50,547 nt of DNA from a virus (taxonomy: Duplodnaviria; Caudoviricetes): IMG/VR virus record IMGVR_UViG_3300020156_000007, positions 1-50,547 of that record. One strand, written 5' to 3'. The notes below the pieces were generated by a model. It saw nothing but the letters and a program-made list of their open reading frames with translations. It ran no database searches and was not told where the DNA came from. This document shows positions 2,563-48,650 of the stretch, piece by piece; positions within the stretch are counted from its first letter, which is position 1, and each line of letters starts with the position of its first letter. The translations under genes and the position numbers were made by a program.

Positions 2563-3000
2563 TCAGCGGAGGCTCAGCGGGCAGAGCTGGACGCTGGGGA
2601 TCGTCACCTCGCGGGCCGAGCCGGCGCAGTCGTAGCTGCAGGTCTTGTTCATGCCGCTGGTCCGCTCGCCGGTCTTGAGGCACATCGGCCCGCGCGGTCG
2701 GGTCTCGGCCGGTTGCTGGCGTGATCGGTTGGCCGTGGTCGCCCCGCCGCTGGTGCGCATGCTGATGGGGCAAAGGTCGGCCGAGCCCACGGTCTGGGAG
2801 GCTTCCGAGCCGCCGCAGTCGTAGTAGCAGATCTTGTTCATGCCGCTGATCCGCTCGCCCCTGTGGCTGCAGACCATCTGCACCCGCACCAGGGCGGGGT
2901 CGCCGGCGCGAGCGCCGCTCGCCGGGGACCGGGCCGTCTGGTCCAGGGCTGGTCCCGCCAGCATCCCCGCGGCCAGGGCTGCCGCCATCAACGCCTTCAT
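2563..3000 (-). CDS. Secreted Cys-rich protein with two internal repeats
   Basis: Signal peptide MKALMAAALAAGMLAGPA; two C-x3-GERxSGMNKxCxYDCxGS...LCPxS units. Confidence 0.75.
   Translation of the reverse strand: MKALMAAALAAGMLAGPALDQTARSPASGARAGDPALVRVQMVCSHRGERISGMNKICYYDCGGSEASQTVGSADLCPISMRTSGGATTANRSRQQPAETRPRGPMCLKTGERTSGMNKTCSYDCAGSAREVTIPSVQLCPLSLR
2908..2922. repeat. 15-bp dispersed palindrome, copy 1
   Basis: GCGAGCGCCGCTCGC. Confidence 0.9.
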
Positions 3001-3120
3001 CACCCGTCCTCCATCCCGGCCGAACACTGGGCGAGGCGGGTGTGCGGGGTCAAGCGCGCGGCGACACCCCGGCCTTGCGCTTCACAACGCCAGGCTGCAC
3101 GGTGCGCCGAGGGGAGTCTC

Positions 3121-3516
3121 ATGGAACTACTGATCGCCTGCATGCTGATCGGCCTCATTCCGGGCGTCATCGCGGCGTCCAGGGGGCACAATTTCCTGCT
3201 CTGGTGGCTGTTCGGCGCGGCGCTCTTCATCGTCGCCCTGCCGTGCTCCCTTTTCCTGAAGAGCCCGGAGCGCAAGGCCGAGGAAGACGCCCGCCGTGTG
3301 GCCCGGGACGCCGCGCTGGCGCAGCTGGTGGCGAACACGACGGCGGCCCAGGGCGCCGCGACCGCGGCCGCCGCCGCGCCGTCGGGCGACACCCGCGACT
3401 GTCCCTGGTGCGCCGAGACGATCAAGGCGGCGGCGAGGATCTGCCGCTTCTGCAATCGCGACGTCGACCCCGTCGAGCGGCTGGACCCTGCAGCCGCCTC
3501 TCCGGGGCCGGCGTGA
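3121..3516 (+). CDS. Membrane protein with C-terminal zinc ribbon
   Basis: GGGGAG RBS; two TM segments; CPWCAETIKAAARICRFC. Confidence 0.85.
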   Translation: MELLIACMLIGLIPGVIAASRGHNFLLWWLFGAALFIVALPCSLFLKSPERKAEEDARRVARDAALAQLVANTTAAQGAATAAAAAPSGDTRDCPWCAETIKAAARICRFCNRDVDPVERLDPAAASPGPA

Positions 3517-3520
3517 GGCT

Positions 3521-3817
3521 CTAGACCGGCGGATCCCGCCCCTCGAGCCTGAAGTACTGAACCGCGCCCGGCGGCCGGGCCGAGAAGTGTTCGAAGCCGG
3601 GGCAGGGCGGGTAGGCGTAGCAGCGCGAGCGGCGGTTCCAGAGGCTCACCTCCGGCCCCATGAAGCGGACGATCATGCCCAGGCGGACGATGCGCTTGCG
3701 GCGGCAGTGGTCGCACTCGGCCAGCACCTCCCAGTTCGAGCGCAGCATGGCGCCGACGCTCTCGTGGCCCGGCCGCCAGTCGGCCAGGGTCCAGCGATCC
3801 TTGTTGCGATGGCCCAT
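3521..3817 (-). CDS. Small Zn-finger protein
   Basis: CDHC...C-x5-C; coupled to the upstream gene by TGATG. Confidence 0.7.
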   Translation of the reverse strand: MGHRNKDRWTLADWRPGHESVGAMLRSNWEVLAECDHCRRKRIVRLGMIVRFMGPEVSLWNRRSRCYAYPPCPGFEHFSARPPGAVQYFRLEGRDPPV

Positions 3818-4119
3818 CAGTCCGGCTGGCGATCGAGCGGGAAGACGTCGTCGATGTTCGGGTCGACCGGCCGGGCGTTGGCGAAGCCGGGCTCCGGCGC
3901 GACCAGGCGTTCGATCAGGGTGGCGATCGCCCGGCCGGCGCACCGCTCGCCGCCGATGTAGCGCAGGCAGCGGGCCCGCCGCTCGGCCTCGGCCAGGGTG
4001 GTGACGCCGTAGGTCCGCACCAGGTGGCCGGTCGGCCGGTCCGACACCGCGCCGCAGCGCAGACAACGGAACTGCACGGCCATGCCGGGAAGGCCGGTGA
4101 TGTCGCGCGGCTCAGCCAT
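3817..4119 (-). CDS. Small Zn-finger protein
   Basis: CLRC...C-x8-C; operon spacing. Confidence 0.7.
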   Translation of the reverse strand: MAEPRDITGLPGMAVQFRCLRCGAVSDRPTGHLVRTYGVTTLAEAERRARCLRYIGGERCAGRAIATLIERLVAPEPGFANARPVDPNIDDVFPLDRQPD

Positions 4120-4120
4120 G

Positions 4121-4288
4121 TCAGCGCCCGAAGTCGGGATCGCCGCACTCCGGGCAGCTGGGCGCATGCACCAGCCAGACCCGGCTGGCCGGGCCCGTCG
4201 GCGCCGGCGTCGGCACGGCCAGCTGCACGAAGTCGCAGACCCCGCAGCGCAGGGCGACCGGGGCAGGGGCAGGAAGCGGATTGTCCAT
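4121..4288 (-). CDS. Small Zn-ribbon protein
   Basis: CGVC...CPEC. Confidence 0.6.
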   Translation of the reverse strand: MDNPLPAPAPVALRCGVCDFVQLAVPTPAPTGPASRVWLVHAPSCPECGDPDFGR

Positions 4289-4335
4289 GTTCAGACCAGG
4301 CAGGCGCCGACCGACCGGGCTGGCCGCCATCTAGA

Positions 4336-4350
4336 GCGAGCGCCGCTCGC
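4336..4350. repeat. 15-bp dispersed palindrome, copy 2 (next to the LexA box)
   Basis: GCGAGCGCCGCTCGC. Confidence 0.9.
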
Positions 4351-4398: not shown

Positions 4399-4776
4399 CT
4401 AGCCTCGCAGGGCCTGCAGCAGCTGGCGGTACTCGCCTTCTGAGAGGCAAGTGCTGGCCTCCCAGAAACGGTCCCGCCCCCCATCGTCGGGCCCCAGCCA
4501 ATCCTCAAACGTTGACCGGCGTCCATCGGGCGCCACGACCACGTCGACGTAATCCAGATCGTCGCAGTCGTTGAATATTTCGACGGTCCAGCCGTTGGCG
4601 AGCCGCGCTACGACGTTGCCGCAGAAGACGTCTGCCCACGACCGCTCCAGCGTGAAGGTGACATCTCCCGTCGCCATAGCCCGCACTTGGGCCACGGCCT
4701 CCTCACGCGAGACGGCGGGGGTGACGGGCGGCGGGCGATAGCCCCATGTGTCGGTCATAGGCGCTTGGTCGCTCAT
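4399..4776 (-). CDS. Hypothetical protein
   Basis: 125-aa ORF directly downstream of the integrase, with a G-rich RBS. Confidence 0.65.
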   Translation of the reverse strand: MSDQAPMTDTWGYRPPPVTPAVSREEAVAQVRAMATGDVTFTLERSWADVFCGNVVARLANGWTVEIFNDCDDLDYVDVVVAPDGRRSTFEDWLGPDDGGRDRFWEASTCLSEGEYRQLLQALRG

Positions 4777-4787: not shown

Positions 4788-6452
4788 TTAAAAATCAAGC
4801 CGCAGCGCGACGGTCGGCGAAGTATGCCAGCGGCTGCAGTGGCCCCCAACCACCAACGCTCCTGTACAAAGCGAGCGGTCCAGGTGTTCGCCGGCGTCCA
4901 TGAGGCCGGCCAGTCTTCCATGCAGGATGAGGTCGACGGGGGCGCCGCGGGCGTCGGACGTGGGCTGGATCTCGATGCGGTCGATCAGGCCGCGGGCGAC
5001 GTCGACGAGGCGGCGGTCGGCGTCGGTAGACGACCGCGCGGCGTCGGACAGGTAGGCGTGCAGCTGCTCGACCTGGCGCCGCCATGCGGCGGCGGCTTCG
5101 GGGTGGAGCTGGATGGGGGCGTTGGCGGCGGCCTCGTCGGGGATGGCGGCGAGTTCGGCGCGGGCCTCGGCGGCCTCGGCGTTGGCCGCGGCGATGCGGG
5201 CGCGCACCTGGGCGGCCATGGGGTCGGCCTTGTCGAGGTCCAGCAGTTCGTCGAGCAGGCGCTCGGCCTTGCGCTCCAGCACTGCGATGCGCTTTTCCAG
5301 GGGCTGGCGACGGTTCACGGCGACGGCGCGCTGGGCGGCGGCGGCCCGGCGGTATTCCTCGACGTAGATCCGGACGGCCTCGGGATGCAGCAGGCGCTGC
5401 GACAGGCCCTCCAGCACGCGCCGCTCGACGTCTCGGCCGAGGACGATGCGGCGGTTCGTGCAGGCCGCCGGACCCTTCTCGCGCGCGGCGGCGCACTGCA
5501 GCCGGCCTCCGCTGGTCGCGGTGTAGGAGGCCCCGCAGCGGCATTTGAGCAGGCCCGACAGCAGCCCCGGACGGCGCACCAGGCGCTCGGGCCGGACGCC
5601 CGCCTCGCGGGCCTTGCGGGCGCGGACGCGGCGCCAGATCTCGTCGGGCACGATGCGCAGGTGCGGGGCCGGGGTGCGCTTCCACTGTTCCGGCGGCAGG
5701 GCGATGGAGCGTCGGGCGCCGGTGGCGCGGTCCTTGGTCTCGCGGATCCGGCCGTACACCTTCACCCCGGCATAGGCCTCGCTGTTCAGGATGCCGTTGC
5801 CGCGCTGGACCGAGCCGTTGATGCTGGAGCTGTTCCACATGCCGCCGCGCGGACCCGGAACGCCCTCGCGGTTCAGCTGGGCGGCGATGGCCCGGGGCGT
5901 CGCGCCGTCGGCGTAGGCCTCGCAGATCCGGCGCACGACGGCTGCCTCCTCCTCGACGATCACGACCTCGCCGCCCGGGCTGGAGCGGTATCCGTAGAGA
6001 CGCGAGCCGGTGGCCAGGCCTTTCTCGGCGTTGCTGGCCATGCCGCGTTTCGTCTTGGCCGACAGGGCGTCGAGGTAGAGTTCGTTCATCACCCCCTTGA
6101 GCCCGACCTCGAGGATGCCGATGGCGTCGGTCGAGAGGGTGGCGATGGCGATGCCGGCCGCGCGCAGCCGGTTGAAGACGTGGGCCTGGTGCTCGAGGTT
6201 GCGCGCGATGCGGTCCTCGTCCTCGGCCAGCAGGATGTCGAAGCCGCCGCGCTCGCCCAGGTCCAGGGCCGCGTTCAGGCCCGGTCGGTTGAACATGTGG
6301 GCGCCGGAGATCGCCGCATCGGAGAAGACGTCGACCACGGCCCAGCCCCGCGCGGCGGCGTGGCGTGTCAGGACCGCGACCTGGTCCTCGATCGAGCGGG
6401 CGTTCTGGCGGTCGGAGCTGTAGCGGGCGTAGAGGGCGACGCGGGCGGTCAT
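4788..6452 (-). CDS. Large serine recombinase (integrase)
   Basis: YARYSS catalytic Ser, DRIAR, recombinase domain, LLSGLLKC-x-CG Zn ribbon, coiled coil. Confidence 0.95.
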   Translation of the reverse strand: MTARVALYARYSSDRQNARSIEDQVAVLTRHAAARGWAVVDVFSDAAISGAHMFNRPGLNAALDLGERGGFDILLAEDEDRIARNLEHQAHVFNRLRAAGIAIATLSTDAIGILEVGLKGVMNELYLDALSAKTKRGMASNAEKGLATGSRLYGYRSSPGGEVVIVEEEAAVVRRICEAYADGATPRAIAAQLNREGVPGPRGGMWNSSSINGSVQRGNGILNSEAYAGVKVYGRIRETKDRATGARRSIALPPEQWKRTPAPHLRIVPDEIWRRVRARKAREAGVRPERLVRRPGLLSGLLKCRCGASYTATSGGRLQCAAAREKGPAACTNRRIVLGRDVERRVLEGLSQRLLHPEAVRIYVEEYRRAAAAQRAVAVNRRQPLEKRIAVLERKAERLLDELLDLDKADPMAAQVRARIAAANAEAAEARAELAAIPDEAAANAPIQLHPEAAAAWRRQVEQLHAYLSDAARSSTDADRRLVDVARGLIDRIEIQPTSDARGAPVDLILHGRLAGLMDAGEHLDRSLCTGALVVGGHCSRWHTSPTVALRLDF

Positions 6453-6455
6453 GGG

Positions 6456-7625
6456 CTAGTCCTTCGACTTGCCGTAGTTGTCGCGCAGCCAAGAAAGGCT
6501 GCCCCACTTCCGGCCAGGCTCACTCGCAACTGAGTGGCGGCCAGGGCGGCTCCGCCTGGCTTCGGTCACAGCCGCGGCCATCCGGTCGGTGAACAACTGA
6601 ACGTCGAGGAAGTAGTTCGGATATGCGGCCCGCAAGTCGCCGACCCGGTCCACTTCGATGAGAACAGCCTGGGGGTATTCTTGGCTGGTCTCGGCGACGA
6701 ACGATGCCTCGGCCGTTAGTCGAAACTGAGTGTTGCTGCGCACCCGCACCGACCTGTTGATGTTGTCGTATTCAACGACGAACGACTGACCGGGCATCCG
6801 GGCGTACTCGTTCGTAAGTCGGATCGCCTCGTTGTAGCTGTGCAGGTTGGCGATCGCCCCCAAGTGAGCCTCAACCTCCGCCAGTTCGTTGAGCAGCTCT
6901 GCACGATCGGCCGGAGTTCCGGGGACTGTGGGGCAGCCCTCCTCGGCGGCGATGACCGATGACATGAGAGTGAAAAGCCGAAGCCAGCGCGGGCAGCCAC
7001 GGCCGGCCTTCAAGTCTTGATCGTTGACCAAGCCGACGGCTTCCACGGCCGTCGCCCATGCGTGCTGCAGGCGCGTTCGGAGTTGGACTTCGATCCGCCG
7101 TCGGGTGGTAATGCTGACGCCATCCTCGTCGCGAACATGCAGCGTAATATGGTGGCTGCGGTAGCCGCTCGGCTTAGGCTCGTCGATGTAGCGCCAGTGG
7201 CGCGCGGCCTGATATCGAGACGATCCGCCGTCATAGAAGCCCACGAGGGCACGCACGCTGTCCATGTCCGGCATGATGGCCCTGCACCCGCCGATGTCCT
7301 GGATGTCGTAGAGGGTCAAAGGCGTCCGACGCAGCTTGTTCCGTATGGAGCTGATCCTCTTCAACCGCCCAGCGGTCAGTCCGCTCTCGCTCAGTTTGCG
7401 TGCAGCGGTAGAGAGCTCCCGGCGCGCCCGCCGCATTGGCTCGACGTGAGCCAGACGAAGCTCGTGAACGGTCCGGAAGATTTGGACGGTTTCGTCGCTG
7501 TAGGGATATGGCAGGAAACCGCGGAGCTTCTCGCCGACGGCGTTTATCTCTCGTTTCGAGTGCTTGGGCACGTGGAACCCGTCGAGATCGCTCCACTCTG
7601 AGTTGGCGGAAGCGGTCGGAGTCAT
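6456..7625 (-). CDS. RelA/SpoT-domain protein; fused CapRel-like toxSAS toxin-antitoxin
   Basis: RLKRxxSIxxKL, QDIGGCR, YIxxPKxSGYRSxH, IEVQLRTxLQHAWATAVE; C-terminal AYPNYF (YXXY) motif. Confidence 0.85.
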   Translation of the reverse strand: MTPTASANSEWSDLDGFHVPKHSKREINAVGEKLRGFLPYPYSDETVQIFRTVHELRLAHVEPMRRARRELSTAARKLSESGLTAGRLKRISSIRNKLRRTPLTLYDIQDIGGCRAIMPDMDSVRALVGFYDGGSSRYQAARHWRYIDEPKPSGYRSHHITLHVRDEDGVSITTRRRIEVQLRTRLQHAWATAVEAVGLVNDQDLKAGRGCPRWLRLFTLMSSVIAAEEGCPTVPGTPADRAELLNELAEVEAHLGAIANLHSYNEAIRLTNEYARMPGQSFVVEYDNINRSVRVRSNTQFRLTAEASFVAETSQEYPQAVLIEVDRVGDLRAAYPNYFLDVQLFTDRMAAAVTEARRSRPGRHSVASEPGRKWGSLSWLRDNYGKSKD

Positions 7626-7802: not shown

Positions 7803-8126
7803 TCAGGCGGCCTCGCCGGCCTGGGCGAGCGCCGCTCGCCGGTTGCAGGCGTCGAGCTCGCGCCGGCCGGCGGGGAGGATGCGGACCTCGCCGCGGCTGG
7901 CGGCGATCCAGCCGGCGTCGAGCATGGGGCTGATGGCGACCCACATCCGCTTGTGCCGCGCGCGGTTGGACAGGTCTTCGCCCTGTCCGGTCATGTTGCG
8001 CAGGTCGCGGTAGGACATGCGGGCGCGGTCGTCGCCCACCAGGGCGGTCAGGATCTCGTGCCAGACCTTGCCGGGGACCAGCTCGGGCGCCTCCGGCGCG
8101 GCAGAGAAGCGGAGGGTCTCAGGCAT
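7803..8126 (-). CDS. Hypothetical protein (winged-helix-like)
   Basis: Operon coupling; LDAGWI..VRILPAGR pattern. Confidence 0.65.
   Translation of the reverse strand: MPETLRFSAAPEAPELVPGKVWHEILTALVGDDRARMSYRDLRNMTGQGEDLSNRARHKRMWVAISPMLDAGWIAASRGEVRILPAGRRELDACNRRAALAQAGEAA
7825..7839. repeat. 15-bp dispersed palindrome, copy 3
   Basis: GCGAGCGCCGCTCGC. Confidence 0.9.
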
Positions 8127-8375: not shown

Positions 8376-8567
8376 TCACGGCTCCAGTTGCAGGTAGGGG
8401 GTGAAGGTGCGCCGGCGGGCCAGGGCGCTGGCGGTTAGGAAGGGGATGGCCAGCGGCCAGAGCAGGGCCAGCCAGAGCCAGCGCAGGCCGACCCAGCGGA
8501 TCGCCCAGGCACCGACCAGCGTACCCGCGAGGTAGACCAGGCCGAGGATGGCGAGCGGGATCATCAC
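8376..8567 (-). CDS. Small two-TM membrane protein
   Basis: MIPLAILGLVYLAG...WLWLALLWPLAIPF; GTGA overlap with the ParB-domain gene. Confidence 0.6.
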   Translation of the reverse strand: MMIPLAILGLVYLAGTLVGAWAIRWVGLRWLWLALLWPLAIPFLTASALARRRTFTPYLQLEP

Positions 8568-10762
8568 GCACCCGCCATTTCGAAGTCGCGGGTGGACTCC
8601 ACCGGCTTGGGCTTGAAGGGGTTGGGGAGGCCGGCCAGGCCGTTGACGGCGTAGACGGTCAGCATGGCCAGCACGGCCTCGAGGCCGTAGGGCTGGTCGC
8701 CTTCGGGGTCGATGACGGCCAGCACTTCCTCGCGGGCGTTCAGCAGGTAGCCGTTGTCGCCGTACTGGACCGGGCCTTCGCCGATGCAGTCCAGCAGCAG
8801 CTCGCGGAACTCGGCGATGTCTTCGTCGCTGCCGACGCCCTGGGCGACCAGGCGGGCGGCGCGGGCGGCCAGTTCCTGGCCGCGGGAGACTTCGGCGTCC
8901 ATGGCGCCGGGCTCGCCGGGGCGGTCGGGCGGCAGGATGTCGGGGGCCGGGGTGAGCGGCGGCAGGTCGCCCGCCTGGCGCGGCGGCAGGGCGGCGCTGA
9001 GGTCGAGGAAGGCGCTGGCGTTGTCGTGCCAGGTGTCGTCGGTCAGGGCCGGTAGGCCCGCGGCCTGGCGGGCGGCGTCGAGGCCCTTGGGGTTGTAGTG
9101 GATGCCGGCGCCGTCGGCGGTCGGATAGGCCCAGCCGCGGCGGACCAGCTCGGCGCGGCCGGCGTCGGTCAGCATGGCGGCGCGGGGCTTGCCGGGCAGA
9201 ACGACGGTCTTCGCCAGCTTGTGGTGCAGCAGTTCGCAGAACTCGGCCGAGGTCCATTCCTGGTGGACCTGGGTCGCCGAGCCGTTGATGCCCGCGTGGA
9301 CGAGGTCGCGGGTCTGGCAGGCGCGGGCCAGTTCGATCAGGGCCAGCGCGGTGCGGGGCTTGAGGGTCGGGGCGTCGGCTGAGCCCCCTCCGTCCGCTTC
9401 GCGGCCACCTCCCCCAGGCGGGGGAGGAGAGGCGCTGTCGCGCACCGGGTTCTCGCGTTCGACGCGGGCCTGCAGGGCGTCGGCGGCGTCGGCCGGGTCG
9501 GCGCGCAGGGCGCCGGGGGTGGTGAAATCCTCCAGGGCGGTCTGCGCCGGATCCACGGTGCGGAGGAAGTCGGTGACGTAGAATCCTTCGTCGGCCGCGA
9601 GCTTCGCCGCCGTGTCGCCGACGACGGCGGTGCGGATCTCGGCAAGCAGTTCGGCGCGGCGGTCGTGAAAGCCGTGTTCCGCCAGCCAGCGCTCGACGCG
9701 CGGGTCTTCGGTGCGGACCCGGGCGAGGCCGTGCGGGCCGCGTTCGATCAGTTCGATCAGGCCGCGTTCGTAGAGGGTGGCGGCGCCGCCCCCGCGGGGG
9801 ACGAAGACCAGTTCCGCCCAGCGGTAGGCGTCCGCTTTCGGAGCCCAGGAGGCGGGGACGTGGACCCCGTCCGTCTCCACCTTGTCCGCCAGTTCCACCA
9901 GCACCAGGGCCAGCTTGTCGGTCAGGTCGAGGTCGCGGCAGCTTTCGCGCAGGGCCTCCCACGTCATCTCCCCGCGCTTGTGCGCCGCGATGGCCTCTGG
10001 CGTGGCCTTGCGGATGATCTGGACGGCTTCCTGCACCAGGCGGACGTGCTTGCCGGTGCGGCGAGCGGCCTCGGCGGCGGACCAGCCGGTGCGCTCGATC
10101 AGGGCGGCGTAGGCCTGGGCTTCATCCAGGGCCGGCAGGTTCGCCCGCTGGCCGTTCTCGACCAGGGCGTCGAGCAGGGTCTCGGCCTCTTCCTGGCCGG
10201 GCTCGGAGGGGGCCTCGACGAAGGGCATGGGGTGGCCGGCGGGCAGGCGGCCCTGTTCGATCAGCAGGCCGACGGCCCGCCAGCGGCGCTCGCCGGCGCG
10301 CAGGGTGCGGACGCCATGCTCGTCGGCGGGGAAGGTCACCACGGGCTGGATCTGGCGGCCGGACACGATGGTCTCGGCCAGCCCCTCCAGCTCGACGGGG
10401 TCGATGGCCTTGCGGGGATTGAGCGGGTTGGGGCGCAGGCGATCGTGGGGCCAGGCGGTCGGGGCGGCATTGCCCCCTCCGTCCGCTTCGCGTCCACCTC
10501 CCCCAGGAGGGGCAGGAGAGCGGCCTTCGAGGGCGTCGAGACCGGGCAGCAGGGCGCGACCGGCGGCGGTCAGGGTCAGGCTGTCGGCGGCGACGAAGCC
10601 GGCGGCGCGCAGGGCGGCGACGGAGCGGGCCACGTTGGACGTGTCGCGCCCGACCGCTCGGCCGAGCGCGGTCCAGCCGGGTTCGGCGCCGGGGTTCTCG
10701 GCGATCCAGCGGATCAGGGGCGCGTTGGAGACCGCCAGCACGGTCGGGGTGATGCTGCTCAT
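8564..10762 (-). CDS. ParB/Spo0J-domain multi-HTH protein (732 aa)
   Basis: N-terminal HTH; LRPNPLNPRK, AGERRWRA Arg patch, ENGQRANL, HTH; long C-terminal extension. Confidence 0.85.
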   Translation of the reverse strand: MSSITPTVLAVSNAPLIRWIAENPGAEPGWTALGRAVGRDTSNVARSVAALRAAGFVAADSLTLTAAGRALLPGLDALEGRSPAPPGGGGREADGGGNAAPTAWPHDRLRPNPLNPRKAIDPVELEGLAETIVSGRQIQPVVTFPADEHGVRTLRAGERRWRAVGLLIEQGRLPAGHPMPFVEAPSEPGQEEAETLLDALVENGQRANLPALDEAQAYAALIERTGWSAAEAARRTGKHVRLVQEAVQIIRKATPEAIAAHKRGEMTWEALRESCRDLDLTDKLALVLVELADKVETDGVHVPASWAPKADAYRWAELVFVPRGGGAATLYERGLIELIERGPHGLARVRTEDPRVERWLAEHGFHDRRAELLAEIRTAVVGDTAAKLAADEGFYVTDFLRTVDPAQTALEDFTTPGALRADPADAADALQARVERENPVRDSASPPPPGGGGREADGGGSADAPTLKPRTALALIELARACQTRDLVHAGINGSATQVHQEWTSAEFCELLHHKLAKTVVLPGKPRAAMLTDAGRAELVRRGWAYPTADGAGIHYNPKGLDAARQAAGLPALTDDTWHDNASAFLDLSAALPPRQAGDLPPLTPAPDILPPDRPGEPGAMDAEVSRGQELAARAARLVAQGVGSDEDIAEFRELLLDCIGEGPVQYGDNGYLLNAREEVLAVIDPEGDQPYGLEAVLAMLTVYAVNGLAGLPNPFKPKPVESTRDFEMAGA
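9384..9430. repeat. REP-like element inserted in frame in the ParB-domain gene (copy 1)
   Basis: ccccctccgtccgcttcgcggccacctcccccaggcgggggaggaga; near-identical to 10473..10519. Confidence 0.8.
10473..10519. repeat. REP-like element inserted in frame in the ParB-domain gene (copy 2)
   Basis: Both copies encode SPxPPGGGGREADGGG. Confidence 0.8.
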
Positions 10763-11075: not shown

Positions 11076-11534
11076 TCAGTGGGCGGGTTGGTCGTCGGCC
11101 GGGGTCCAGCCTTCGGCGGCCAGCTGCTCGAGGCAGGCGCGGGCCTCCGGGGCGGTGACGCCGGTGTGGAAGACGGCGAAGGGGACGAGGCCGTCCGGCT
11201 CGCCGCTGAGGTGTGGGTGCAGGTGCGTCGGGGGCGACGCCAGCAGGGCGGGCTCCCCGCCGTAGTCGCCCAGGCTGACCTGATCGGGGCGCTTGCCGAT
11301 CTTCACGAGCGCCGTCTGCACGGCCTTCAGGGGCCGGGCCTGGGGCGAGCTGATCCAGCGGCGTTTGTCGTCGATGGCGGCGTGGGCGAGCCGCGGCGCG
11401 AAGGGGGTGAGATGAATGCCGACCGCGCGCCGGGCCGCCAACAGGTTGGCGAAGTCGGCGGGCGACATGCGAGCGCCGCTCGCGGTCGCCTGGGCGGCGG
11501 CCTCGGCCCGGGTCTGGAAGGCGGGGGCGCTCAT
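11076..11534 (-). CDS. Hypothetical protein
   Basis: Early-left operon member. Confidence 0.65.
   Translation of the reverse strand: MSAPAFQTRAEAAAQATASGARMSPADFANLLAARRAVGIHLTPFAPRLAHAAIDDKRRWISSPQARPLKAVQTALVKIGKRPDQVSLGDYGGEPALLASPPTHLHPHLSGEPDGLVPFAVFHTGVTAPEARACLEQLAAEGWTPADDQPAH
11469..11483. repeat. 15-bp dispersed palindrome, copy 4
   Basis: GCGAGCGCCGCTCGC. Confidence 0.9.
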
Positions 11535-12240: not shown

Positions 12241-13011
12241 ATGCTGAACTTCGAACATTTCGTGCGCGTGCGATCGGCTCTGACGGGGCGCGCGGCGGAG
12301 GCCAGGGCGGAGCGTTTCGGGCGGCCGGTCGGCGGCGCAGCGTTCGACGACGACGCCATGATGGTGATGGTCGACGCGCCTCCGGCGGACCCCATCGCCT
12401 TCCACATGGTCTACACCGACGCGAAGAAGGACCTGACCGGGCGCTGCATCACCGTCCGATCCCTGCGCGAGGAGTTGGACGAGGTCCGGGTCGGGGCGAT
12501 CTGCCATTTTCGCAATGCTCTGCGCAGCTTCCTGGGATCGCGCATCGTCGAGCTGACGGACCTGGCGACGGGCGAGGTGCACGACGACGGCCTCGCCTAT
12601 TTCCGCAGCCATCCGTTCCTGCGCCCCGCGACGGCCGACGTGCTGTCCGGGCTGTCGAACGAGATCCTGGCCATGCAGGCCTGCCGCGACGAGATCATTC
12701 TGCTGACCTTCGTCGGCGCCGCCGACGGCATGCTCGATCCCGACGAGATGGATGAGATCGTGAAGCACGTCTTCGACAGCGCCGACGACGCGCTGGACGA
12801 GGGGGAAATCCGGCGCCGCGCCGCATCGTTCGTGCCGGACGAGCGCGCCTTCTATCGGGCCCTGGACCGGATCTGCGAACGGGACGGCGACGCCCGGCTG
12901 CTGATGCGGTCCCTGCGTCGGGTGGTGGACGCCGACGGGGAGGTCGACGTCGAGGAGATCGCGTTCGTCGACGAGATCGCGCGACGCCTCGAAGCCGCCG
13001 GCAAGCTCTAG
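12241..13011 (+). CDS. WYL-like plus TerB-like fusion protein
   Basis: YTDAKKDLTGRCI...AICHFRNALRSFLGSRI (WYL-like); AADGMLDPDE and DADGEVDVEE (TerB metal-binding motifs). Confidence 0.75.
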   Translation: MLNFEHFVRVRSALTGRAAEARAERFGRPVGGAAFDDDAMMVMVDAPPADPIAFHMVYTDAKKDLTGRCITVRSLREELDEVRVGAICHFRNALRSFLGSRIVELTDLATGEVHDDGLAYFRSHPFLRPATADVLSGLSNEILAMQACRDEIILLTFVGAADGMLDPDEMDEIVKHVFDSADDALDEGEIRRRAASFVPDERAFYRALDRICERDGDARLLMRSLRRVVDADGEVDVEEIAFVDEIARRLEAAGKL

Positions 13012-13373
13012 CGGCCGAGGCTGACCCCGCCGACGCGGCAGACGGCGATCACCCGGTCGTAGCTGGTCGTGCGGCCGTTGCGACCGCGGCGGACGGTGCA
13101 GACCGCGTGCCGGGCCTTGTTGCGCATCATCCGCCGCTTGGCCGCCTCGCCTTCGGGCGTGCCGAGTTCGGCCGCGTCGGCGTCCTCCAGTCGCACCTCG
13201 ACCAGGCCGTCGGCCGTGCGCACACAGATGCTGTCGCCGTCGATCACCCAGCCGATCGGGCCGGAGAAGGTCTGGCCCTCACGGGTGGGCAGGGGCGCTT
13301 CGCAGGGGTCCGCGAGCGCAGGGCTGGCGGCCAGCCCCAGGACGAAGACGCCAGCGACGAGCGGCGCTCGCAT
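13008..13373 (-). CDS. Secreted thermonuclease (SNase)-like protein, short
   Basis: Signal peptide; VIDGDSI, VRLxxxDAxE, SYDRVIAVC; coupled to cI by TGATG. Confidence 0.8.
   Translation of the reverse strand: MRAPLVAGVFVLGLAASPALADPCEAPLPTREGQTFSGPIGWVIDGDSICVRTADGLVEVRLEDADAAELGTPEGEAAKRRMMRNKARHAVCTVRRGRNGRTTSYDRVIAVCRVGGVSLGR
13357..13371. repeat. 15-bp dispersed palindrome, copy 5
   Basis: ACGAGCGGCGCTCGC. Confidence 0.85.
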
Positions 13374-14062
13374 CAGAAGGACACGTAGGCGCGGAGAACC
13401 TTGGCCACGATCTCGACCGTGTCGCCGTTCTCCAGGTTCATGTCCTCGCCGACGTCGAGCGGCTGGGACCACTTGTCGTTGTAGGATCGCGGCCAGAGCT
13501 GAATGCCCTCGGGCGCCAGAACGACCTGTTTCACCGTGCGCTCGCGGAAGGCTCCCTGGGCGCGGGTGCGGACGACGACAACGACGTCTTCGTGGGCGGG
13601 CTCGTAACCCATGGCTATGGCGTCGACGACGTGGATCAGGGCGCCGTCGGGGATGAAGCGATTGTAGGAGTCGCCGCGCACGCGCTCCAGCCACTGCGGC
13701 CAGCGCTCGTAGCCTTCGACCAGCTGGGCCCGGTGCACGCCGAGCGGCTCGTCCACGGCCTCGTCCGTCGCCAGCCAGGCGCCGGCGGCCACCTCATAGC
13801 GGATGGGCAACATGGTCTCGGGCTGTAGGGGCAGGGGAGGGCCTTCGCCCGGCTCGTCGGTGACGCCCAGCAGGTAGTCGACGCTGCAGGCCAGCACGCT
13901 CGCCAGCTTGGCCAGGTTCTCGGCGCGGGGCGAGGTCTCCGGGCGACGGCGCAGGGTCCGGATGAAGTCCCGGCCCAGGCCAGCCTCGCGCGACGCGCCC
14001 TCGGGCGACTTACCGAGGGCCTCGAGCCGCTCGTCTATCCGGTTCAGCAGGGTCGTGGACAT
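13373..14062 (-). CDS. cI: CI-like repressor (XRE HTH plus S24 peptidase)
   Basis: HTH ...LASVLACSVDYLLG; VAAG cleavage site, VRGDS Ser, TVK Lys. Confidence 0.9.
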   Translation of the reverse strand: MSTTLLNRIDERLEALGKSPEGASREAGLGRDFIRTLRRRPETSPRAENLAKLASVLACSVDYLLGVTDEPGEGPPLPLQPETMLPIRYEVAAGAWLATDEAVDEPLGVHRAQLVEGYERWPQWLERVRGDSYNRFIPDGALIHVVDAIAMGYEPAHEDVVVVVRTRAQGAFRERTVKQVVLAPEGIQLWPRSYNDKWSQPLDVGEDMNLENGDTVEIVAKVLRAYVSF

Positions 14063-14073
14063 GGCCGCGACAC

Positions 14074-14146
14074 TGCCGCGCAACTGCCCGCACATGAACG
14101 CGGGTTCTTGCCCTTGACCATGCGGGCAACTGCCCGCATACAATCC
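14074..14146. promoter_or_regulatory. OR operators with PR/PRM
   Basis: Three related sites (14074-14092, about 14099-14115, and near-palindromic atgcgggcaactgcccgcat at 14120-14139); TTGACC at 14114. Confidence 0.85.
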
Positions 14147-14150
14147 GACC

Positions 14151-14411
14151 ATGTCCATCTCGCAATTCCTCGCACGCTGCGACGCCTATCGGGCCCGCCG
14201 CAACGTCAGTGACGCGCGGCTGAGCACCCTCCTGTTCAACGACGGCAAGAAGATCGGCCTGCTGCGGGCAGGCGGAGACATCGGCGTCCTGACCCTCGCA
14301 CGGGTCGAGCAGGTGTTGGCCGGGCTCGAATCGGAACTGCCGGACGGACCATCGGAAACCCCCTGTGATGACGCCGTCGAACCTGCCCTCGCGCAGGCGC
14401 CGGCGCAGTAG
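14151..14411 (+). CDS. Cro-like regulator (probably leaderless mRNA)
   Basis: Divergent from cI; SDARLSTLLFNDGK HTH-like; no SD sequence. Confidence 0.8.
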   Translation: MSISQFLARCDAYRARRNVSDARLSTLLFNDGKKIGLLRAGGDIGVLTLARVEQVLAGLESELPDGPSETPCDDAVEPALAQAPAQ

Positions 14412-14432
14412 GAAAGCGAGGCGTTCGTTCCT

Positions 14433-14864
14433 ATGAACCGGCTCCAGCACAAGTTTCACGCCCGGCGCCTGATCGGAGAATGCGGCGGGCTGGCCGCGGC
14501 GGCGGCGGCCCTGGTCAACCGCAAGGGCTGCGCCCAGCGGCTCGGCGAATACCAGAACCCCAACCACGACGCGGTCATGCCGGCGGACGTGATCTGGGAC
14601 CTGGAGCAGTTCTGCGGCAAGCGGATCTACAGCCGGGCCCTGTTCCAGTCCGGCCCCGACGAAGGCACGGCCGAGGAGTGCGCCCTGAACGGGGCGCTGG
14701 AGGCGACCGAGGCGGTCGTCGACCTGCAGCAACGCCTGCGCCTGGCGACGAAGGACGGCCAGCTCTCGATGGCCGAGGGCGACGCGGCCCTGCACCAGAT
14801 CGAACAGGCGCGCGAGCAGCTGGACGAGGTCGCCCGCACGATCCGCCTGGGTCGCGGCCAATGA
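14433..14864 (+). CDS. CII-like regulatory protein
   Basis: Position after cro; YQNPN..MPADVIxxLE...DGQLSxxE pattern. Confidence 0.65.
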   Translation: MNRLQHKFHARRLIGECGGLAAAAAALVNRKGCAQRLGEYQNPNHDAVMPADVIWDLEQFCGKRIYSRALFQSGPDEGTAEECALNGALEATEAVVDLQQRLRLATKDGQLSMAEGDAALHQIEQAREQLDEVARTIRLGRGQ

Positions 14865-15306: not shown

Positions 15307-15698
15307 AGCGGGCCCCGAAGTTCCGCCGGTCGCTGCTGGTCGGCGAGGCCCTGGCCGACGACCTGGTCCGATTCGATCGGCTGGGCCGGGCGGCGGCCGC
15401 TGTGCTGGCCGATCCCGAGGCCGGGATGGCCGAGCTGGAGGCCGCGGCGACGTCCGCCGCGCGCTCGACCCTGCCCCGGGCACAGCGCTGGCGGGGCAGC
15501 CCGCTGTACCTGCTGGTGCGCACCGCCCAGGCCGTTCCGAACCTGCCCGACCAACTGCGGGCCGAAGGGCTGGCGCGGCTGAAGCGTCATCTCGATGCCG
15601 TCGAGGGCGTCTCCGTCACCGGGGCCGACGCCTCGGAGCGGGCGGCGCCGGCCGAGATCCTGCCGGAGCGCGAGCCGCGCCGGGACGTGTTCGGATGA
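15303..15698 (+). CDS. Hypothetical protein
   Basis: GTGA coupling. Confidence 0.6.
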   Translation: MKRAPKFRRSLLVGEALADDLVRFDRLGRAAAAVLADPEAGMAELEAAATSAARSTLPRAQRWRGSPLYLLVRTAQAVPNLPDQLRAEGLARLKRHLDAVEGVSVTGADASERAAPAEILPEREPRRDVFG

Positions 15699-15916
15699 GC
15701 CCGCGCTTCAACCGCAACGCCTCCTGCCTCGGCATGGGGTACGGGGTGGGCGTCCGCCGCGGGCCGATGAGCGCCTGGGAGATCGACTTCGCCCTGCAGA
15801 AGCGCCGTCTGCGCGCCGGCTGGGCCGACATCGCCGGCATGTTGGGCCGCTCCGAGCCGGACGTGCGGCTCGCCTGCGAAGAGGCGCTCGCCGCCGTGGA
15901 GGCCGCCCGTGGCTGA
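15695..15916 (+). CDS. Small HTH protein
   Basis: GWADIAGMLGRSEPDVR HTH. Confidence 0.6.
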   Translation: MSPRFNRNASCLGMGYGVGVRRGPMSAWEIDFALQKRRLRAGWADIAGMLGRSEPDVRLACEEALAAVEAARG

Positions 15917-32372: not shown

Positions 32373-32387
32373 GCGAGCGCCGCTCGC
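32373..32387. repeat. 15-bp dispersed palindrome, copy 11
   Basis: GCGAGCGCCGCTCGC, within an extended hairpin after the capsid gene. Confidence 0.9.
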
Positions 32388-35293: not shown

Positions 35294-35898
35294 TCCGGCT
35301 CCCCACGGCCGACCAGCTGGCGGAACTGGCGCGGCCGGTCTGGCGCGACTACGGCCACATCCTGCCCGGCGTCCGCTGCCAGGTGCGCGGGCTCACGTCG
35401 ATGGATCTCGACGCCGCCCGGCGCCGGGCCCAGGGCGTCATCCGCCGCATGGCCACGGCCGCCGACGACCTGGACACGACGCTCGCCGACTACGGCCTCG
35501 GCGGCGAGGATGCGAGCGGCGCTCGCTTCAATCCGGCCGACCCGGACCAGGCCGGGCGCATCGGCATGCTGATCGGCAGCGTCGAGGTGGTGCTGGAAGG
35601 ACTCGTCGCCTGGGAGGGGATCTCGCTGGACGGCGAGACCGTCGCCCCCATCAACCGCCAGACCCTGGCCGTGGCCCTGCTGCACGACGGGCTGGAGCGG
35701 AAGCTGATGGCCGACATATCGGCCCTGTCCGACCGGATCCTCGCCGAGGGAAAGCCCTCGGGGGCCTCGCAGCCTGGTTCTTCCGGGCGGACGGCGCAGG
35801 CCCCAACCCGAGATACTGCCGCGAAAGCTGCAAGGCGACGGACCAGCCGTGCAGCCAAGGCCGGCGCGGCCGCAACGGACAGTTCTGCCCCGAAGTAG
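35290..35898 (+). CDS. Tail assembly chaperone G
   Basis: Follows the tail tube; contains G GGA AAG slippery site at 35748-35754. Confidence 0.8.
   Translation: MIRLPTADQLAELARPVWRDYGHILPGVRCQVRGLTSMDLDAARRRAQGVIRRMATAADDLDTTLADYGLGGEDASGARFNPADPDQAGRIGMLIGSVEVVLEGLVAWEGISLDGETVAPINRQTLAVALLHDGLERKLMADISALSDRILAEGKPSGASQPGSSGRTAQAPTRDTAAKAARRRTSRAAKAGAAATDSSAPK
35512..35526. repeat. 15-bp dispersed palindrome, copy 12
   Basis: GCGAGCGGCGCTCGC. Confidence 0.9.
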
Positions 35899-39374: not shown

Positions 39375-39784
39375 AACTCGGCGGTTTCCTAGATCAGGCG
39401 GCGCGCACACCCTTTGTCTGGGGCGGCCTGGCGGGTCAGGACTGCATGATCTTCGTCGCCGACTGGGCCCTCTTGCGGACCGGGCGGGACCCGGCGGCGC
39501 GCTGGCGCGGGTCCTACGACAGCGAGGCGGGCGCGGGCCTTATTCTGGACGCCCTGGGCGGCCTGGTCCCGTTGCTCGACGAAGGGCTCGGCGCGGACGG
39601 CTGGGTTAGCACGGCCGATCCCGTCAGCGGCGACATCGGCGCGGTCGAGGTGCGGGCCGTTGATGGGCGAGCGGCGCTCGCCGGCGCGGTCCGCACCGGC
39701 GGCCTTTGGGCCGTCAAGGCTCAGTCCGGTCTGGGCCTGATCCGCGCCGCCCCTGCCGCCGCCTGGACCTGGCCCGAGAGGTAA
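39353..39784 (+). CDS. NlpC/P60-like tail-associated protein
   Basis: PFVWG...DCxxFVADW...TGxDPA..WRGSY. Confidence 0.75.
   Translation: MAAVGRLKLGGFLDQAARTPFVWGGLAGQDCMIFVADWALLRTGRDPAARWRGSYDSEAGAGLILDALGGLVPLLDEGLGADGWVSTADPVSGDIGAVEVRAVDGRAALAGAVRTGGLWAVKAQSGLGLIRAAPAAAWTWPER
39667..39681. repeat. 15-bp dispersed palindrome, copy 13
   Basis: GCGAGCGGCGCTCGC. Confidence 0.9.
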
Positions 39785-44346: not shown

Positions 44347-44361
44347 GCGAGCGGCGCTCGC
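44347..44361. repeat. 15-bp dispersed palindrome, copy 14
   Basis: GCGAGCGGCGCTCGC. Confidence 0.9.
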
Positions 44362-46896: not shown

Positions 46897-46961
46897 CGGT
46901 TGCGCAGCTTGCCTGGTCCGCCGACTATTGCACGTCGTTGCCTTGCCGAGGGAGCCCCCGC

Positions 46962-47309
46962 TTGAGACTCGTCCCCGTCGCCCTCGCCGTCGTCCTCCTC
47001 GCCGCCTGCGGCCAGGCCGACCCGGACGTCCAGCTTCTCGCCGAGGCCCAGGCCGATCTGAAGCTCTCGGCGCGGGATCCGGAGTCGGTGCGCTTCGGTC
47101 AGGTCTGGGTGTCGCGGGTATCGGGCGTCCCCGCCGTCTGCGGGACCATGAACGCCCGCAACGGCTTTGGCGGCTACGCCGGCGAGCGCCGCTTCATCTG
47201 GGCCTCTCAGCGCGAGATCTGGGTCGACGAAGGCGCCACGGCCACCGAGCTGGAACGCCGCTGGCCGAGCATGTGCCGGTCGGAACCGACGCCGCTACCG
47301 GCATCCTAG
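46962..47309 (+). CDS. Lipoprotein moron
   Basis: GAGGGAG RBS, TTG start, LLAAC lipobox; DPESVRF..VCGTMNARNGFGGYAG. Confidence 0.75.
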   Translation: MRLVPVALAVVLLAACGQADPDVQLLAEAQADLKLSARDPESVRFGQVWVSRVSGVPAVCGTMNARNGFGGYAGERRFIWASQREIWVDEGATATELERRWPSMCRSEPTPLPAS

Positions 47310-47488
47310 GGTTTGGGCTTCACTTCCCGTCTCCCCTTCGCGGCCTCCAGGCACTCGGCGTAGAGATCAAGGAACTCGTCCTTACTGCGGACGGCGCTAA
47401 TGTACCGCTTGAGATAAGTCGCCAGCTTGTAAGCCACGTTCTCAGGGGTGCCGCTGCCGGCGAGCGAATCTTCGGAATCGTCAGACAT
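47306..47488 (-). CDS. Small hypothetical protein
   Basis: GAGG RBS; TPENVAYKL...LDLYAECL. Confidence 0.65.
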   Translation of the reverse strand: MSDDSEDSLAGSGTPENVAYKLATYLKRYISAVRSKDEFLDLYAECLEAAKGRREVKPKP

Positions 47489-47701
47489 CGATGGTTAGCC
47501 TCTTGCGCTTGGAGGTGTCGCGCCCGTGGGCTGATGCCATCCGCCGGCGGACCGGCAGCCATCTGCCCGCACTTGCGAGGTGGTGGGCGCGACGGCGCAT
47601 CTGACACCGGGCGAGCGCTGCGCGCAACGGCGCCCTGAACCTAAGCGTCTGTAACGGCCCGGCGGGATGGCTCAGCCTTGGGCGATCGCGTGGAGGTCGC
47701 C

Positions 47702-48073
47702 ATGGACGCCGTTGTCGCCGCCTGCTGGGGTTTCGCCGGGGCCGTGCCCTATGCCGGCACGCGGCTGGCGACGGCGCTGTGGGGCAGTTCGGACGTGGAC
47801 GCCCGCCAGCGCAAGCTGGCCGCCGCGCACTTCGCCATCGCCATGTTCACAGGTCCGGTCACCGCGGCCGCCCTGGCGCCCTGGGTGGCGGCCTGGCTGC
47901 ATATGGCTCGCCTCGAGGCCGTGGCCGTCGCGCTGGGCCTGTTCTCCAACGCCGCCTGGCCCGTCGTCACCGACCGCGCCGTCGTCGGCCGCCTGCTGAC
48001 CTGGTTCGGCGGCCAGCTGCTGAAGCTGGGCGCCGACGCCTCTGGCGACGCAAACCCCAAGGGGAACTCGTGA
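47702..48073 (+). CDS. Membrane protein (holin/antiholin candidate)
   Basis: GGAGG RBS; 2-3 TM segments. Confidence 0.65.
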   Translation: MDAVVAACWGFAGAVPYAGTRLATALWGSSDVDARQRKLAAAHFAIAMFTGPVTAAALAPWVAAWLHMARLEAVAVALGLFSNAAWPVVTDRAVVGRLLTWFGGQLLKLGADASGDANPKGNS

Positions 48074-48633
48074 TGCTGAACGCCTGGCTGACCCTGCTCT
48101 GCGGCGCGCTGTGCCTGTTCGCCTCGGCCTGCGTCGGGACGCACGAGATCCTGATGAGCCCCGACCGGCCGAACTATCCGACCGCCCAGCGGCGGCTGCG
48201 GATGCTGATGTTCCTTTGGTCGGGGACCCTGCTGTACCGGGGCGTCGAGCTGACGACCGCGGCCTGGGCCGGGCTGGCCTGGGGCGCGCCGGTGCTGCCC
48301 GTTACGCCCGGGCAGGTCAGCACGTGCATCATGCTGGCCGCCGTGCATGCCGCCCTGTTGGAGCAGCACCTGCGGATGTGGCTGCCGTCCCGGCTGCAGG
48401 AGAGGGTTCGCCATTGGCTGCACATCGCCAGCTGCGGCCGCACCCGCATGCTGGCCGAAGCCCGCGCCCAGTCCAATCGGGGACTCCGGCCGGGCGTCGA
48501 GCCGCTGACGGCGCCGCCTGCGGTCGTCAGCGGCGCCCTGGCCGAACTGGCCATGAGCGGCGCCGTCGTCGCCGGCCCGGGTGACGGCCCCGAAGTCCTG
48601 CTGCACGCCGCGCCGCCCGTCGCGCGCCCCTGA
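48073..48633 (+). CDS. Membrane protein
   Basis: TGATG coupling; about 3 TM segments. Confidence 0.65.
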   Translation: MLNAWLTLLCGALCLFASACVGTHEILMSPDRPNYPTAQRRLRMLMFLWSGTLLYRGVELTTAAWAGLAWGAPVLPVTPGQVSTCIMLAAVHAALLEQHLRMWLPSRLQERVRHWLHIASCGRTRMLAEARAQSNRGLRPGVEPLTAPPAVVSGALAELAMSGAVVAGPGDGPEVLLHAAPPVARP

Positions 48634-48635
48634 AA

Positions 48636-48650
48636 GCGAGCGGCGCTCGC
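48636..48650. repeat. 15-bp dispersed palindrome, copy 15
   Basis: GCGAGCGGCGCTCGC. Confidence 0.9.

Follow-up and report, generated by a model that had tools for sequence, protein, structure and literature searches.

A genome-wide palindrome array in a phage of a Brevundimonas-like host and a ParB-like protein as its candidate reader

ParB-type switches operated by cytidine triphosphate (CTP) are known from how chromosomes and plasmids are segregated, and from Noc, KorB and BisD. Noc is a ParA-less paralogue of ParB with many dispersed palindromic sites, a parS site is found inside the spo0J gene, and the OB palindrome is present in a dozen copies around the plasmid RK2, which has a ParA-type partner, IncC. 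In temperate phages, the stoperators of L5 and Bxb1 and the CIR sites of phiC31 are examples of a short site repeated many times across the genome. Here we analyze the window, i.e. the whole stretch of 50,547 nucleotides (positions 1 to 50,547) of the IMG/VR virus record IMGVR_UViG_3300020156_000007, which judging from its genes is a lambdoid temperate phage. We found in it 15 exact copies of the palindrome CGAGCGSCGCTCG and, in the same genome, a gene (8564-10762, minus strand) for a ParB-like protein of 732 amino acids (aa). Our analysis indicates that the 15 palindromes are probably parS-like loading sites for this protein, the phage's own orphan ParB-like clamp gated by CTP.

KorB, from the IncP plasmid RK2, has been described as a ParB-family clamp closed by CTP that loads at a palindrome, slides at least 1.5 kb and acts at a distance (PMC11790492). 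As in that case, the phage appears to combine a ParB-family CTPase carried by a mobile element with a short palindrome. However, KorB is a much more distant match of the window protein (2e-5) than chromosomal ParB and Noc are (1e-34 to 1e-28), no KorA-like partner was identified in the phage (no search aimed at KorA was made), and the element is here an integrating phage without ParA. Besides, the phage sites are even, found also inside genes and apparently mostly off promoters, whereas OB is described as promoter-linked (PMC11790492). A second case is BisD, an orphan ParB-like CTP clamp of ICEclc in Pseudomonas, for which loading at parS-like sites and spreading over ~50 kb are reported (PMC12409273). 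By that account BisD is, like the phage protein, an orphan ParB-like protein of an integrating element with an extra domain, but it has two bisS sites and a long asymmetric sliding, whereas here there are 15 regular sites (3-21 in relatives). The best sequence matches to the N-domain and the helix-turn-helix (HTH) of the phage protein are those of the Noc/NBS and ParB/parS systems. Nevertheless, the palindrome has another sequence, the replicon is a phage and not a chromosome, and the protein is two to three times longer, adding an N-terminal HTH domain and an uncharacterised C-terminus. The parS site inside spo0J has a parallel in the palindrome copies found inside 9 of 25 phage ParB-like genes.

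As a phenomenon, the closest published case is that of the Cluster O mycobacteriophages, with 34 invariant 17-bp palindromes (TGTTCGG-N3-CCGAACA) genome-wide, many of them in the gaps between open reading frames (ORFs) or close to where these end, unconnected with promoters and with a predicted dimeric binder (PMC4351075). These phages encode a protein with a ParB-like domain (gp90 of Corndog), which the authors set aside as a stability function, naming no binder (PMC4351075). Host phylum, sequence and spacer differ from ours and the Cluster O phages are described as not obviously temperate; by analogy, the same pairing of ParB-like protein and array may exist in them. Stoperators have an asymmetric sequence that is oriented with transcription and serves as binding site of the immunity repressor (PMC4351075), whereas the sites described here are palindromic and the distribution of the CI-like family does not follow that of the arrays. 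For these reasons we abandoned the analogy with stoperators drawn in the sequence-only reading, an earlier annotation made from the letters of this DNA. Besides CTP, the ParB fold is able to bind ATP or GTP, and a survey reported many orphan ParB-like genes on prophages with no role assigned (PMC12704722). Our literature search gave no description of the motif or of this ParB-like family, members of which may be listed in the supplementary datasets of PMC12704722, and the pairing of phage ParB-like proteins with palindrome arrays has apparently not been described yet.

A palindrome evenly spaced over the phage genome

The phage record is complete and circular, its 127-bp terminal repeat leaving a circle of 50,420 bp with 71% G+C. 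The 13-bp core, a 6-1-6 palindrome, starts at positions 2909, 4337, 7826, 11470, 13358, 15930, 19294, 24069, 27096, 29032, 32374, 35513, 39668, 44348 and 48637, all of them exact copies and all where the sequence-only reading had located its 15 sites. On the 5' side of the core 13 copies have G and two have A, and on the 3' side 14 have C and one has T; our recount gave the same 12 perfect 7-1-7 palindromes and three with one terminal transition. Beyond this R...Y pair the flanks are unrelated among the phage copies.

The expected number of copies was estimated in several ways. One hundred dinucleotide shuffles had a mean of 0.09 copies and a maximum of one, and Markov models (order 1-5) fitted to the genome with the sites left in predicted 0.04-0.17. 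Synonymous-codon shuffles (n=300) left a mean of 6.06 copies, i.e. the six intergenic ones that this shuffle does not touch, indicating that protein sequence and codon usage do not explain the nine copies inside genes. Thus, neither higher-order Markov nor codon-preserving backgrounds account for the 15 copies. Allowing up to two mismatches we found 32 matches (15 exact, two with one mismatch and 15 with two) against ~19 expected. Since the inexact ones are only 17, degenerate copies are not in excess and the site is either perfect or absent.

The gaps around the circle range from 1,428 to 4,775 bp, with a coefficient of variation (CV) of 0.31. Of 200,000 random placements, a fraction of 5e-6 reached a CV as low as that observed and not one kept its largest gap within 4,775 bp, so the evenness of the spacing is well beyond chance. 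The copies also crowd gene boundaries: six of the 15 are intergenic, in a genome with 11.3% intergenic DNA (P 0.004), and the median distance from site to gene boundary is 36 nt versus 175 nt for random positions (P 0.0006). The earlier annotation had five intergenic copies and ten in ORFs, figures that our count changes to six and nine. It had also described a central base that is C in the first part of the genome and G in the last. This layout is found as described (C at ten sites, G at five), but the four circular runs are not significant (P 0.097). The central base is the sole asymmetric one and showed no relation to gene strand nor any significant pattern over the 15 sites; in relatives, it can be any nucleotide.

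We also looked for the motif in the host. The same phage, one of a Brevundimonas-like host, is a 50,431-base contig in the metagenome-assembled genome (MAG) of a Brevundimonas sp. Of the 17 copies in this MAG (3.1 Mb), 15 are on the contig of the phage and two in the ~3.05 Mb elsewhere, and 120 other genomes of the genus added up to 281 (mean 2.3, maximum 5), compared to 49 for the reversed control. The density of sites in the phage is several hundred times that of the host and no genome of the genus approaches it, indicating that the array is specific to the phage and is not a host-wide repeat of the REP, HIP or uptake-sequence type. The host copies examined belong to a conserved chromosomal locus and have flanks unlike the R...Y of the phage. 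At this locus (L221, positions 7770 and 8688; L222; L223; L195) there are one or two 13-mers, 0.6-0.9 kb apart where there are two, inside a long ORF of 966 or 854 aa depending on the strand.

Arrays in other phages and the gene that accompanies them

Dozens of other phages and prophages were found to carry this palindrome, or sister versions of it, in arrays with regular spacing. A first scan of viral contigs was carried out with the 15-mer and ten matching records were examined in full. These records, chosen by the motif, had 2-8 exact copies each, with no matches for the reversed control; the closest relatives by the portal-like protein (~60% identity) had no copy of the palindrome. Sister arrays have the half-sites CGAACG, CGCACG, CGAACC, CAAACG or GCGAGC-N3, and the record with the most divergent ParB-like protein (G014) has five copies of CGCACG-N-CGTGCG. 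A second scan used GCGAACGSCGTTCGC. Among the matches listed, 36 records of at least 30 kb were examined for the sister motif CGAACG-S-CGTTCG, 26 with 3-21 copies and ten with one, again with zero for the reversed control. Records with CGAACG arrays span 61-69% G+C. Regular spacing appears to be a property of the whole family, the CV being below the random mean in 19 of 20 other records (Fisher P 6.5e-11, the records being partly related). In a 59.9-kb record (G147) 11 of the 17 copies of CGAACG-N-CGTTCG have A or T at the centre, hence the S centre of the window sites is not a rule of the family. The 95.7-kb provirus record G154, which corresponds to genome G764, has 21 copies and two ParB-like genes and may be two adjacent prophages called as one.

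Comparison of homologous genes gives information about the level at which selection acts. In the homologues of ORF 28858-30399 the palindrome is found at the same linker spot in five phages (the window, G011, G016, G019 and G020); there the window encodes RAPLA, whereas the other four use a different frame and encode ASAAR or ASGAR. Because the same spot carries the palindrome in two reading frames, its position being kept even where the frame differs, selection acts on the DNA and not on the protein, as the sequence-only reading had proposed. The site in ORF 35290-35898 aligns without indels to DSAGQR in two array-less relatives (G001 and G002), indicating that it arose by substitution rather than by insertion. 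In 9 of 25 ParB-like genes a copy is located 9-13 codons upstream of the GERR box and encodes ASGAR (CGAGCG form) or ANGVR (CGAACG form).

We compared the proteins of the window with the array records by tblastn. A homologue of the ParB-like protein was present in seven of the ten records chosen by the motif, the three without it being fragments (25%, 62% and 30% complete), and was absent from both array-less relatives. Two of the array records, G013 and G015, share with the window only early and replication genes, while what G001 and G002 share are structural genes; the array therefore goes with the early module. Five new records were then selected by ParB-like alignment alone: three had 4-6 exact copies and two had eight and nine copies of CGAACG-N-CGTTCG, the latter detected by de novo palindrome counting. 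For the sister motif, among the matches listed, the ParB-like gene was found in 22 of the 26 multi-copy (at least three) records versus one of the ten single-copy ones, this one a weak match (Fisher P 6.6e-5). The four misses are 49-77% complete, and for records at least 90% complete the figures are 11/11 versus 0/2. Sixteen records chosen by portal-like homology had neither the ParB-like gene (0/16) nor an array, with 0-2 matches to the degenerate pattern, none palindromic. Including these controls, the pooled Fisher P for the ParB-like gene versus the array was 2e-9.

The same gene stood out in an unbiased clustering of the 2,177 predicted proteins of at least 60 aa of 29 full records (27 array-bearing and two array-less), with presence confirmed by tblastn. 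The ParB-like family was detected in 24 of the 27 array-bearing records, the three misses being fragments, and in none of the two array-less ones, and it was the only family with such a distribution. Five of the 27 had been chosen by the ParB-like protein; among the 22 chosen by motif it was present in 19. Six array-bearing records lacked the terminase family and six the portal-like one, both of which the array-less relatives do have. For the CI-like, primase and methyltransferase-like families the misses were 7-10 array-bearing records each, ten of the 27 for the CI-like one, which is present in array-less relatives.

In a sample of 351 genomes of the host family, 20 (including the MAG of the window) have the ParB-like gene at E <=1e-25, and the palindromes cluster beside it. 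De novo palindrome counting in the 40-kb flanks of ten of these loci detected arrays at nine: CGAACG in G806 (nine copies), G888 (seven), G728 (five) and G608 (four), CGAGCG in G668 (seven), CGCACG at the second ParB-like gene of G862 (five to six), TGCGAACC-C-GGTTCGCA in G680 (three), GCAAACG-N-CGTTTGC in G599 (three) and GCGAGC-NNN-GCTCGC in G908 (five). In G862, nine of the 11 matches in the genome fall within 37 kb (C1:58279-95544), the last of them inside the ParB-like gene, with only two elsewhere in 3.4 Mb. This genome has two ParB-like genes (L429, L416, L439, L440), with the CGAACG array at one and the CGCACG array (C1:1356000-1377000) at the other. Two classes beside two ParB-like genes in one cell are a strong argument against a host reader, and it is with the element rather than with the host that the class of palindrome goes. 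In a quick maximum-likelihood tree of 35 ParB-like proteins the classes need four changes versus 9.9 in shuffles (none of 200 as low), and on this tree CGAACG is the deep state and CGAGCG a derived one.

Individual sites and gene layout of the phage

The gene layout was derived from composition-based gene calls and protein family scans. In the leftward block, family scans identified genes for a SRAP peptidase (1893-2561) and a serine integrase (4788-6452), and between the latter and the early operon there is a RelA/SpoT-like gene (6456-7625, minus strand). This ORF (389 aa, RelA/SpoT domain at E 6e-16) has a codon bias weaker than its neighbours, was overlooked by the coding filter and may be a moron of the small alarmone synthetase type. 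The ParB-like gene belongs to the same leftward block, in an integrase-proximal operon downstream of the CI-like gene. An ORF with a TerB domain (12241-13011, plus strand) breaks the block between the CI-like and ParB-like operons, a stretch that is unbroken in relatives. The immunity region contains the CI-like S24/HTH repressor gene (13373-14062, minus strand) and a CII-like gene (14433-14864). The rightward genes are a C5 cytosine methyltransferase of 563 aa (15984-17675, plus strand), the match of which to the Pfam model is limited to the first 185 residues, the primase and helicase-primase (19336-22409), the small and large terminases (23927-26563) and, onward from these, the head and tail genes. 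In 15 records the ParB-like gene is located at most 3 kb downstream of a CI-like gene and is co-directional with it, and it is always a few kb from the provirus end, pointing toward this end. The pL operon of lambda has the same position and, by analogy, this suggests that the ParB-like gene is expressed early.

Seven copies of the palindrome lie at the left of the primase gene. Copy 1 (2908-2922, centre C) is near the 5' end of a weakly supported ORF (2563-3003, minus strand) and copy 2 (4336-4350, centre C) is intergenic, with the minus-strand ORFs 3817-4119 and 4399-4776 at its two sides. Copy 3 (7825-7839, centre C) is 23 nt from the stop of ORF 7803-8126 (minus strand) and 0.7 kb downstream of the ParB-like gene, while copy 4 (11469-11483, centre C) encodes ASGAR from codon 18 of ORF 11076-11534 (minus strand). 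Copy 5 (13357-13371, centre G, with an A flank) adjoins the stop of the CI-like gene. In a relative with ~97% identity (run X3, record 14; over 12368-14461), there is a G>T change at 13363 in this copy and an A>G change at its flank. Copy 6 (15929-15943, centre C, A flank) is between ORF 15695-15916 and the C5 methyltransferase gene and counts as intergenic under the start codon chosen, and copy 7 (19293-19307, centre C) is at the 3' end of ORF 19062-19328 (plus strand).

The other eight copies are found among the terminase genes and beyond. Copy 8 (24068-24082, centre C, T flank) is inside the small-terminase-like ORF 23927-24466, which matches phrog_57, and copy 9 (27095-27109, centre C) is intergenic, beginning 2 nt past the stop of ORF 26876-27094. 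Copy 10 (29031-29045, centre C) starts at codon 59 of ORF 28858-30399, in the variable linker where it encodes RAPLA, copy 11 (32373-32387, centre C) is intergenic between ORFs 31280-32353 and 32418-32759, and copy 12 (35512-35526, centre G) encodes ASGAR from codon 75 of ORF 35290-35898. The last three also have G at the centre: copy 13 (39667-39681) in a weakly supported ORF (39446-39784, plus strand), copy 14 (44347-44361) intergenic, with its core starting 42 nt upstream of the start codon at 44390, and copy 15 (48636-48650), also intergenic, 4 nt after the stop at 48633 and ending ~20 nt before the start at 48670. A copy with one mismatch (10280-10292), not counted as a site, is located in the ParB-like gene, where it codes for the GERRW box (GGC GAG CGC CGC TGG), probably a coding coincidence. 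In the ParB-like gene of G155 the codons for GERRS (140-144) are an exact copy of the CGAACG class, and the flanks of several host-chromosome copies fit an ERRS reading.

A near-identity search with the first 25 kb against deposited phages gave as sole match a 376-bp methylase stretch, and no relative was present among the deposited phage genomes and plasmids searched. The phage was detected, as contigs, in two metatranscriptome libraries and in two or three DNA runs. The contig cover is patchy and flat (30/30 bins in X4 and 25/30 in X5) and uninformative as to the expression of the ParB-like gene or a lysogenic versus lytic state.

The ParB-like protein as candidate reader

Four parts can be recognized in the 732-aa protein: an N-terminal winged-helix-like domain, a ParB_N CTPase domain, a HTH and ~400 aa of uncharacterised C-terminus. 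ParB_N gave 31.7 bits with Pfam (cut-off 26.3), and the GERRWRA and ENGQR(ANL) boxes are present. A profile built from eight homologues matched Spo0J (1vz0, E 1.4e-34), the ParB of Caulobacter (6t1f, 4.9e-29) and Noc (9e-29), with KorB as a weak match (2e-5). Aligned to Spo0J and ParB, this profile spans GERRxRA, ENxQRxDL and the HTH. In these eight homologues the ENxQR residues N203, Q205 and R206 are invariant, while the GERR box varies (GECR, GEQR, GHRR). By sequence, the window protein has a genuine N-domain and HTH of the ParB/Noc type. Family members are 500-1,100 aa long, and the copies in genomes of the host family 494-876 aa by reconstruction. The N-terminal 90 residues are winged-helix-like in the clade of the window and an XRE-type HTH in the deep CGAACG clade. 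Since this domain changes while the CGAACG motif stays, it is not the common reader. The model of the C-terminus in the Atlas has low confidence and a TM of at most 0.33 to anything. Two homologues, P0003 (678-782) and P0006 (734-828), have at their C-terminal end a Ros/MucR domain (E 1e-25 and 5e-24), for which the window protein gave no match; this fold is that of the H-NS-like silencer of alphaproteobacteria. Six-frame searches of the complete phage gave no AAA_31 or CbiA match, both controls having matched in 14/14 genomes. With no ParA encoded, the system is not ParABS or a plasmid-type partition. Wider searches for ParB-like proteins were seeded with A2, an N-terminal alignment of five sequences, the eight-sequence A1 being too divergent as seed. 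A single-protein locus search with the window protein found no relative, and in a sample of 400 genomes of the host class (four candidates scored per genome) there was no match at E 1e-30 beyond the MAG of the window.

If the protein works like ParB, Noc, KorB and BisD, its dimer would recognise the 6-1-6 palindrome through the HTH domain, binding to the site together with CTP would close the N-terminal gate, and the closed clamp would then slide off the site. With a site every 1.4-4.8 kb, clamps would be loaded over the whole 50-kb chromosome and over almost no host DNA, and the sites would have been placed wherever coding allows, i.e. at gene ends, in linkers and in intergenic DNA. We infer the physical binding, the CTP dependence and the sliding of the ParB-like protein, as well as the purpose of the array. 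The sequence-only reading had predicted sites for a dimeric protein organising the whole phage chromosome. The comparisons among genomes are in line with this and narrow the predicted binder to the ParB-like protein. Of the findings by which that reading could have been refuted, a count due to a higher-order background, an equal density in the host and a lack of positional conservation in relatives were examined, and none applied.

Several observations weigh against this assignment, the case for which is throughout one of co-occurrence. Relatedness or mosaic kinship among many of the records makes the counts overstate independence, and eight of the host-family loci are proviruses already among the viral records and add no independent support. 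HTH_ParB scored 21.6 bits in the window protein, under the Pfam cut-off of 22.6 (it is above it in the homologues P0006, 25.5, and P0008, 23.9), and no C-terminal dimerisation domain was recognised, residues 355-732 having no match in Pfam. In the alignments compared, no residue of the HTH or of the N-terminal region cleanly separates the palindrome classes: HTH regions are near-identical across different classes (G011 versus G142), and two proteins of the CGCACG class share no obvious special residues. There are two weak leads, REG[S/A]E in CGAGCG-class proteins versus bulky residues in some of the CGAACG class, and a change from VQ to VE or VA in two rare classes. Sites are not significantly closer to the ParB-like gene than expected by chance (Fisher P 0.32), one ParB-like locus, G681, has no array in its 40-kb flanks by de novo counting, and G161 has only three copies. 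Single copies can be lost, as copy 5 in the relative mentioned above. Finally, some records have mixed classes (7+2 in G010, 5+3+1 in G014), and G013 and G017 keep one CGAACG copy, read as ANGVR, among their CGAGCG copies (ParB-like codons 139 and 180), which could be a relic of the ancestral class under coding constraint.

The alternative that survives best, though we regard it as unlikely, is that another phage protein binds the palindromes, either a small HTH protein of the early operon or a partner of the N-terminal domain, the ParB-like gene simply co-travelling in the module. The lack of HTH residues that separate the classes would fit this idea, as would the small conserved ORFs that adjoin the ParB-like gene (clusters 166, 178 and 179, in 5-9 records) and the restriction of the clustering to proteins of 60 aa or more. 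However, no other family is found in more than 21 of the 27 array-bearing records, the nearest ones being present also in array-less relatives, and the families of small neighbouring ORFs reach only 9-10 genomes. The switch of the N-terminal domain between winged helix and XRE-like types, with the CGAACG motif unchanged, also speaks against this alternative.

That the sites belong to a host factor (a nucleoid protein, a topoisomerase, AddAB with a Chi-like signal or a defence system with its recognition sequence) seems to us very unlikely. The motif contains AGCGG, which we take to resemble the AddAB Chi sequences of Firmicutes, and many of the phages with arrays have Caulobacterales as closest hosts. 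But host chromosomes have only background numbers, the site is symmetric with a free central base, and the classes are pure within a phage and differ between phages of the same bacterial family, even between the two prophages of a single genome. Besides, the range of G+C of the CGAACG records indicates varied hosts.

There is hardly any probability left for the sites being targets of a phage DNA methyltransferase or of another modification enzyme. The phage encodes the C5 methyltransferase, the motif contains one GCGC, and phage ParB-like proteins have been reported to activate DNA-modifying dioxygenases (PMC13229309). Yet among the 12 records compared only G014 has a homologue of the methyltransferase, 10 of the 27 array-bearing records lack the methyltransferase-like family to which ORF 18124-19029 belongs, the sister motif CGAACG-N-CGTTCG lacks GCGC, and the proteins scanned (part of the ORFs) include no dioxygenase. 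Equally remote is a role as RNA or DNA structure elements (terminators, attenuators, cruciforms) or as footprints of small mobile or homing elements: 41-nt windows centred on the sites do fold more stably than random ones (-20.1 versus -15.4 kcal/mol) and many copies are at gene ends, but on neither strand is any of the 15 copies followed by a T-run, a 6-bp stem closed by a 1-nt loop is not possible as such, the flanks are unrelated, copies inside genes keep the frame and arise by substitution without indels, and even spacing with lineage-specific variants is unexpected for terminators. Overall, the readings as host repeat, terminator, mobile insert, stoperator and methyltransferase target were set aside on the basis of host density, absence of T-runs, absence of indels, symmetry and family distribution.

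For parS-like loading of the phage's own ParB-like clamp, the purpose that we prefer is a genome-wide mark of phage DNA that would serve either to control transcription over long range or to organise or protect the replicating DNA. Orphan ParB-like proteins of phages gain in this way a concrete candidate partner in cis, a lattice of sites over the whole genome, the regularity of which suggests a sliding range of a few kilobases. The natural variants of specificity differ by one or two base pairs, and a single genome, G862, carries two candidate orthogonal pairs. The system is therefore suitable for asking what is gained by coating a chromosome, how the specificity between ParB and its site is rewired and whether unexplained arrays such as those of Cluster O function alike. 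More tentatively, and as something we consider possible rather than likely, a large family of temperate alphaproteobacterial phages would wrap its own chromosome, and only this one, in orphan ParB-CTPase clamps by means of a regular parS-like lattice, as a mark or condensate of self DNA. If true, the coat of clamps could shield or compartmentalise the replicating phage DNA from host nucleases, SMC-type defences or MucR-type silencers, or alternatively set a genome-wide transcriptional state, and the orthogonal site classes, at least five or six, would act like incompatibility groups by which co-resident prophages keep separate identities.

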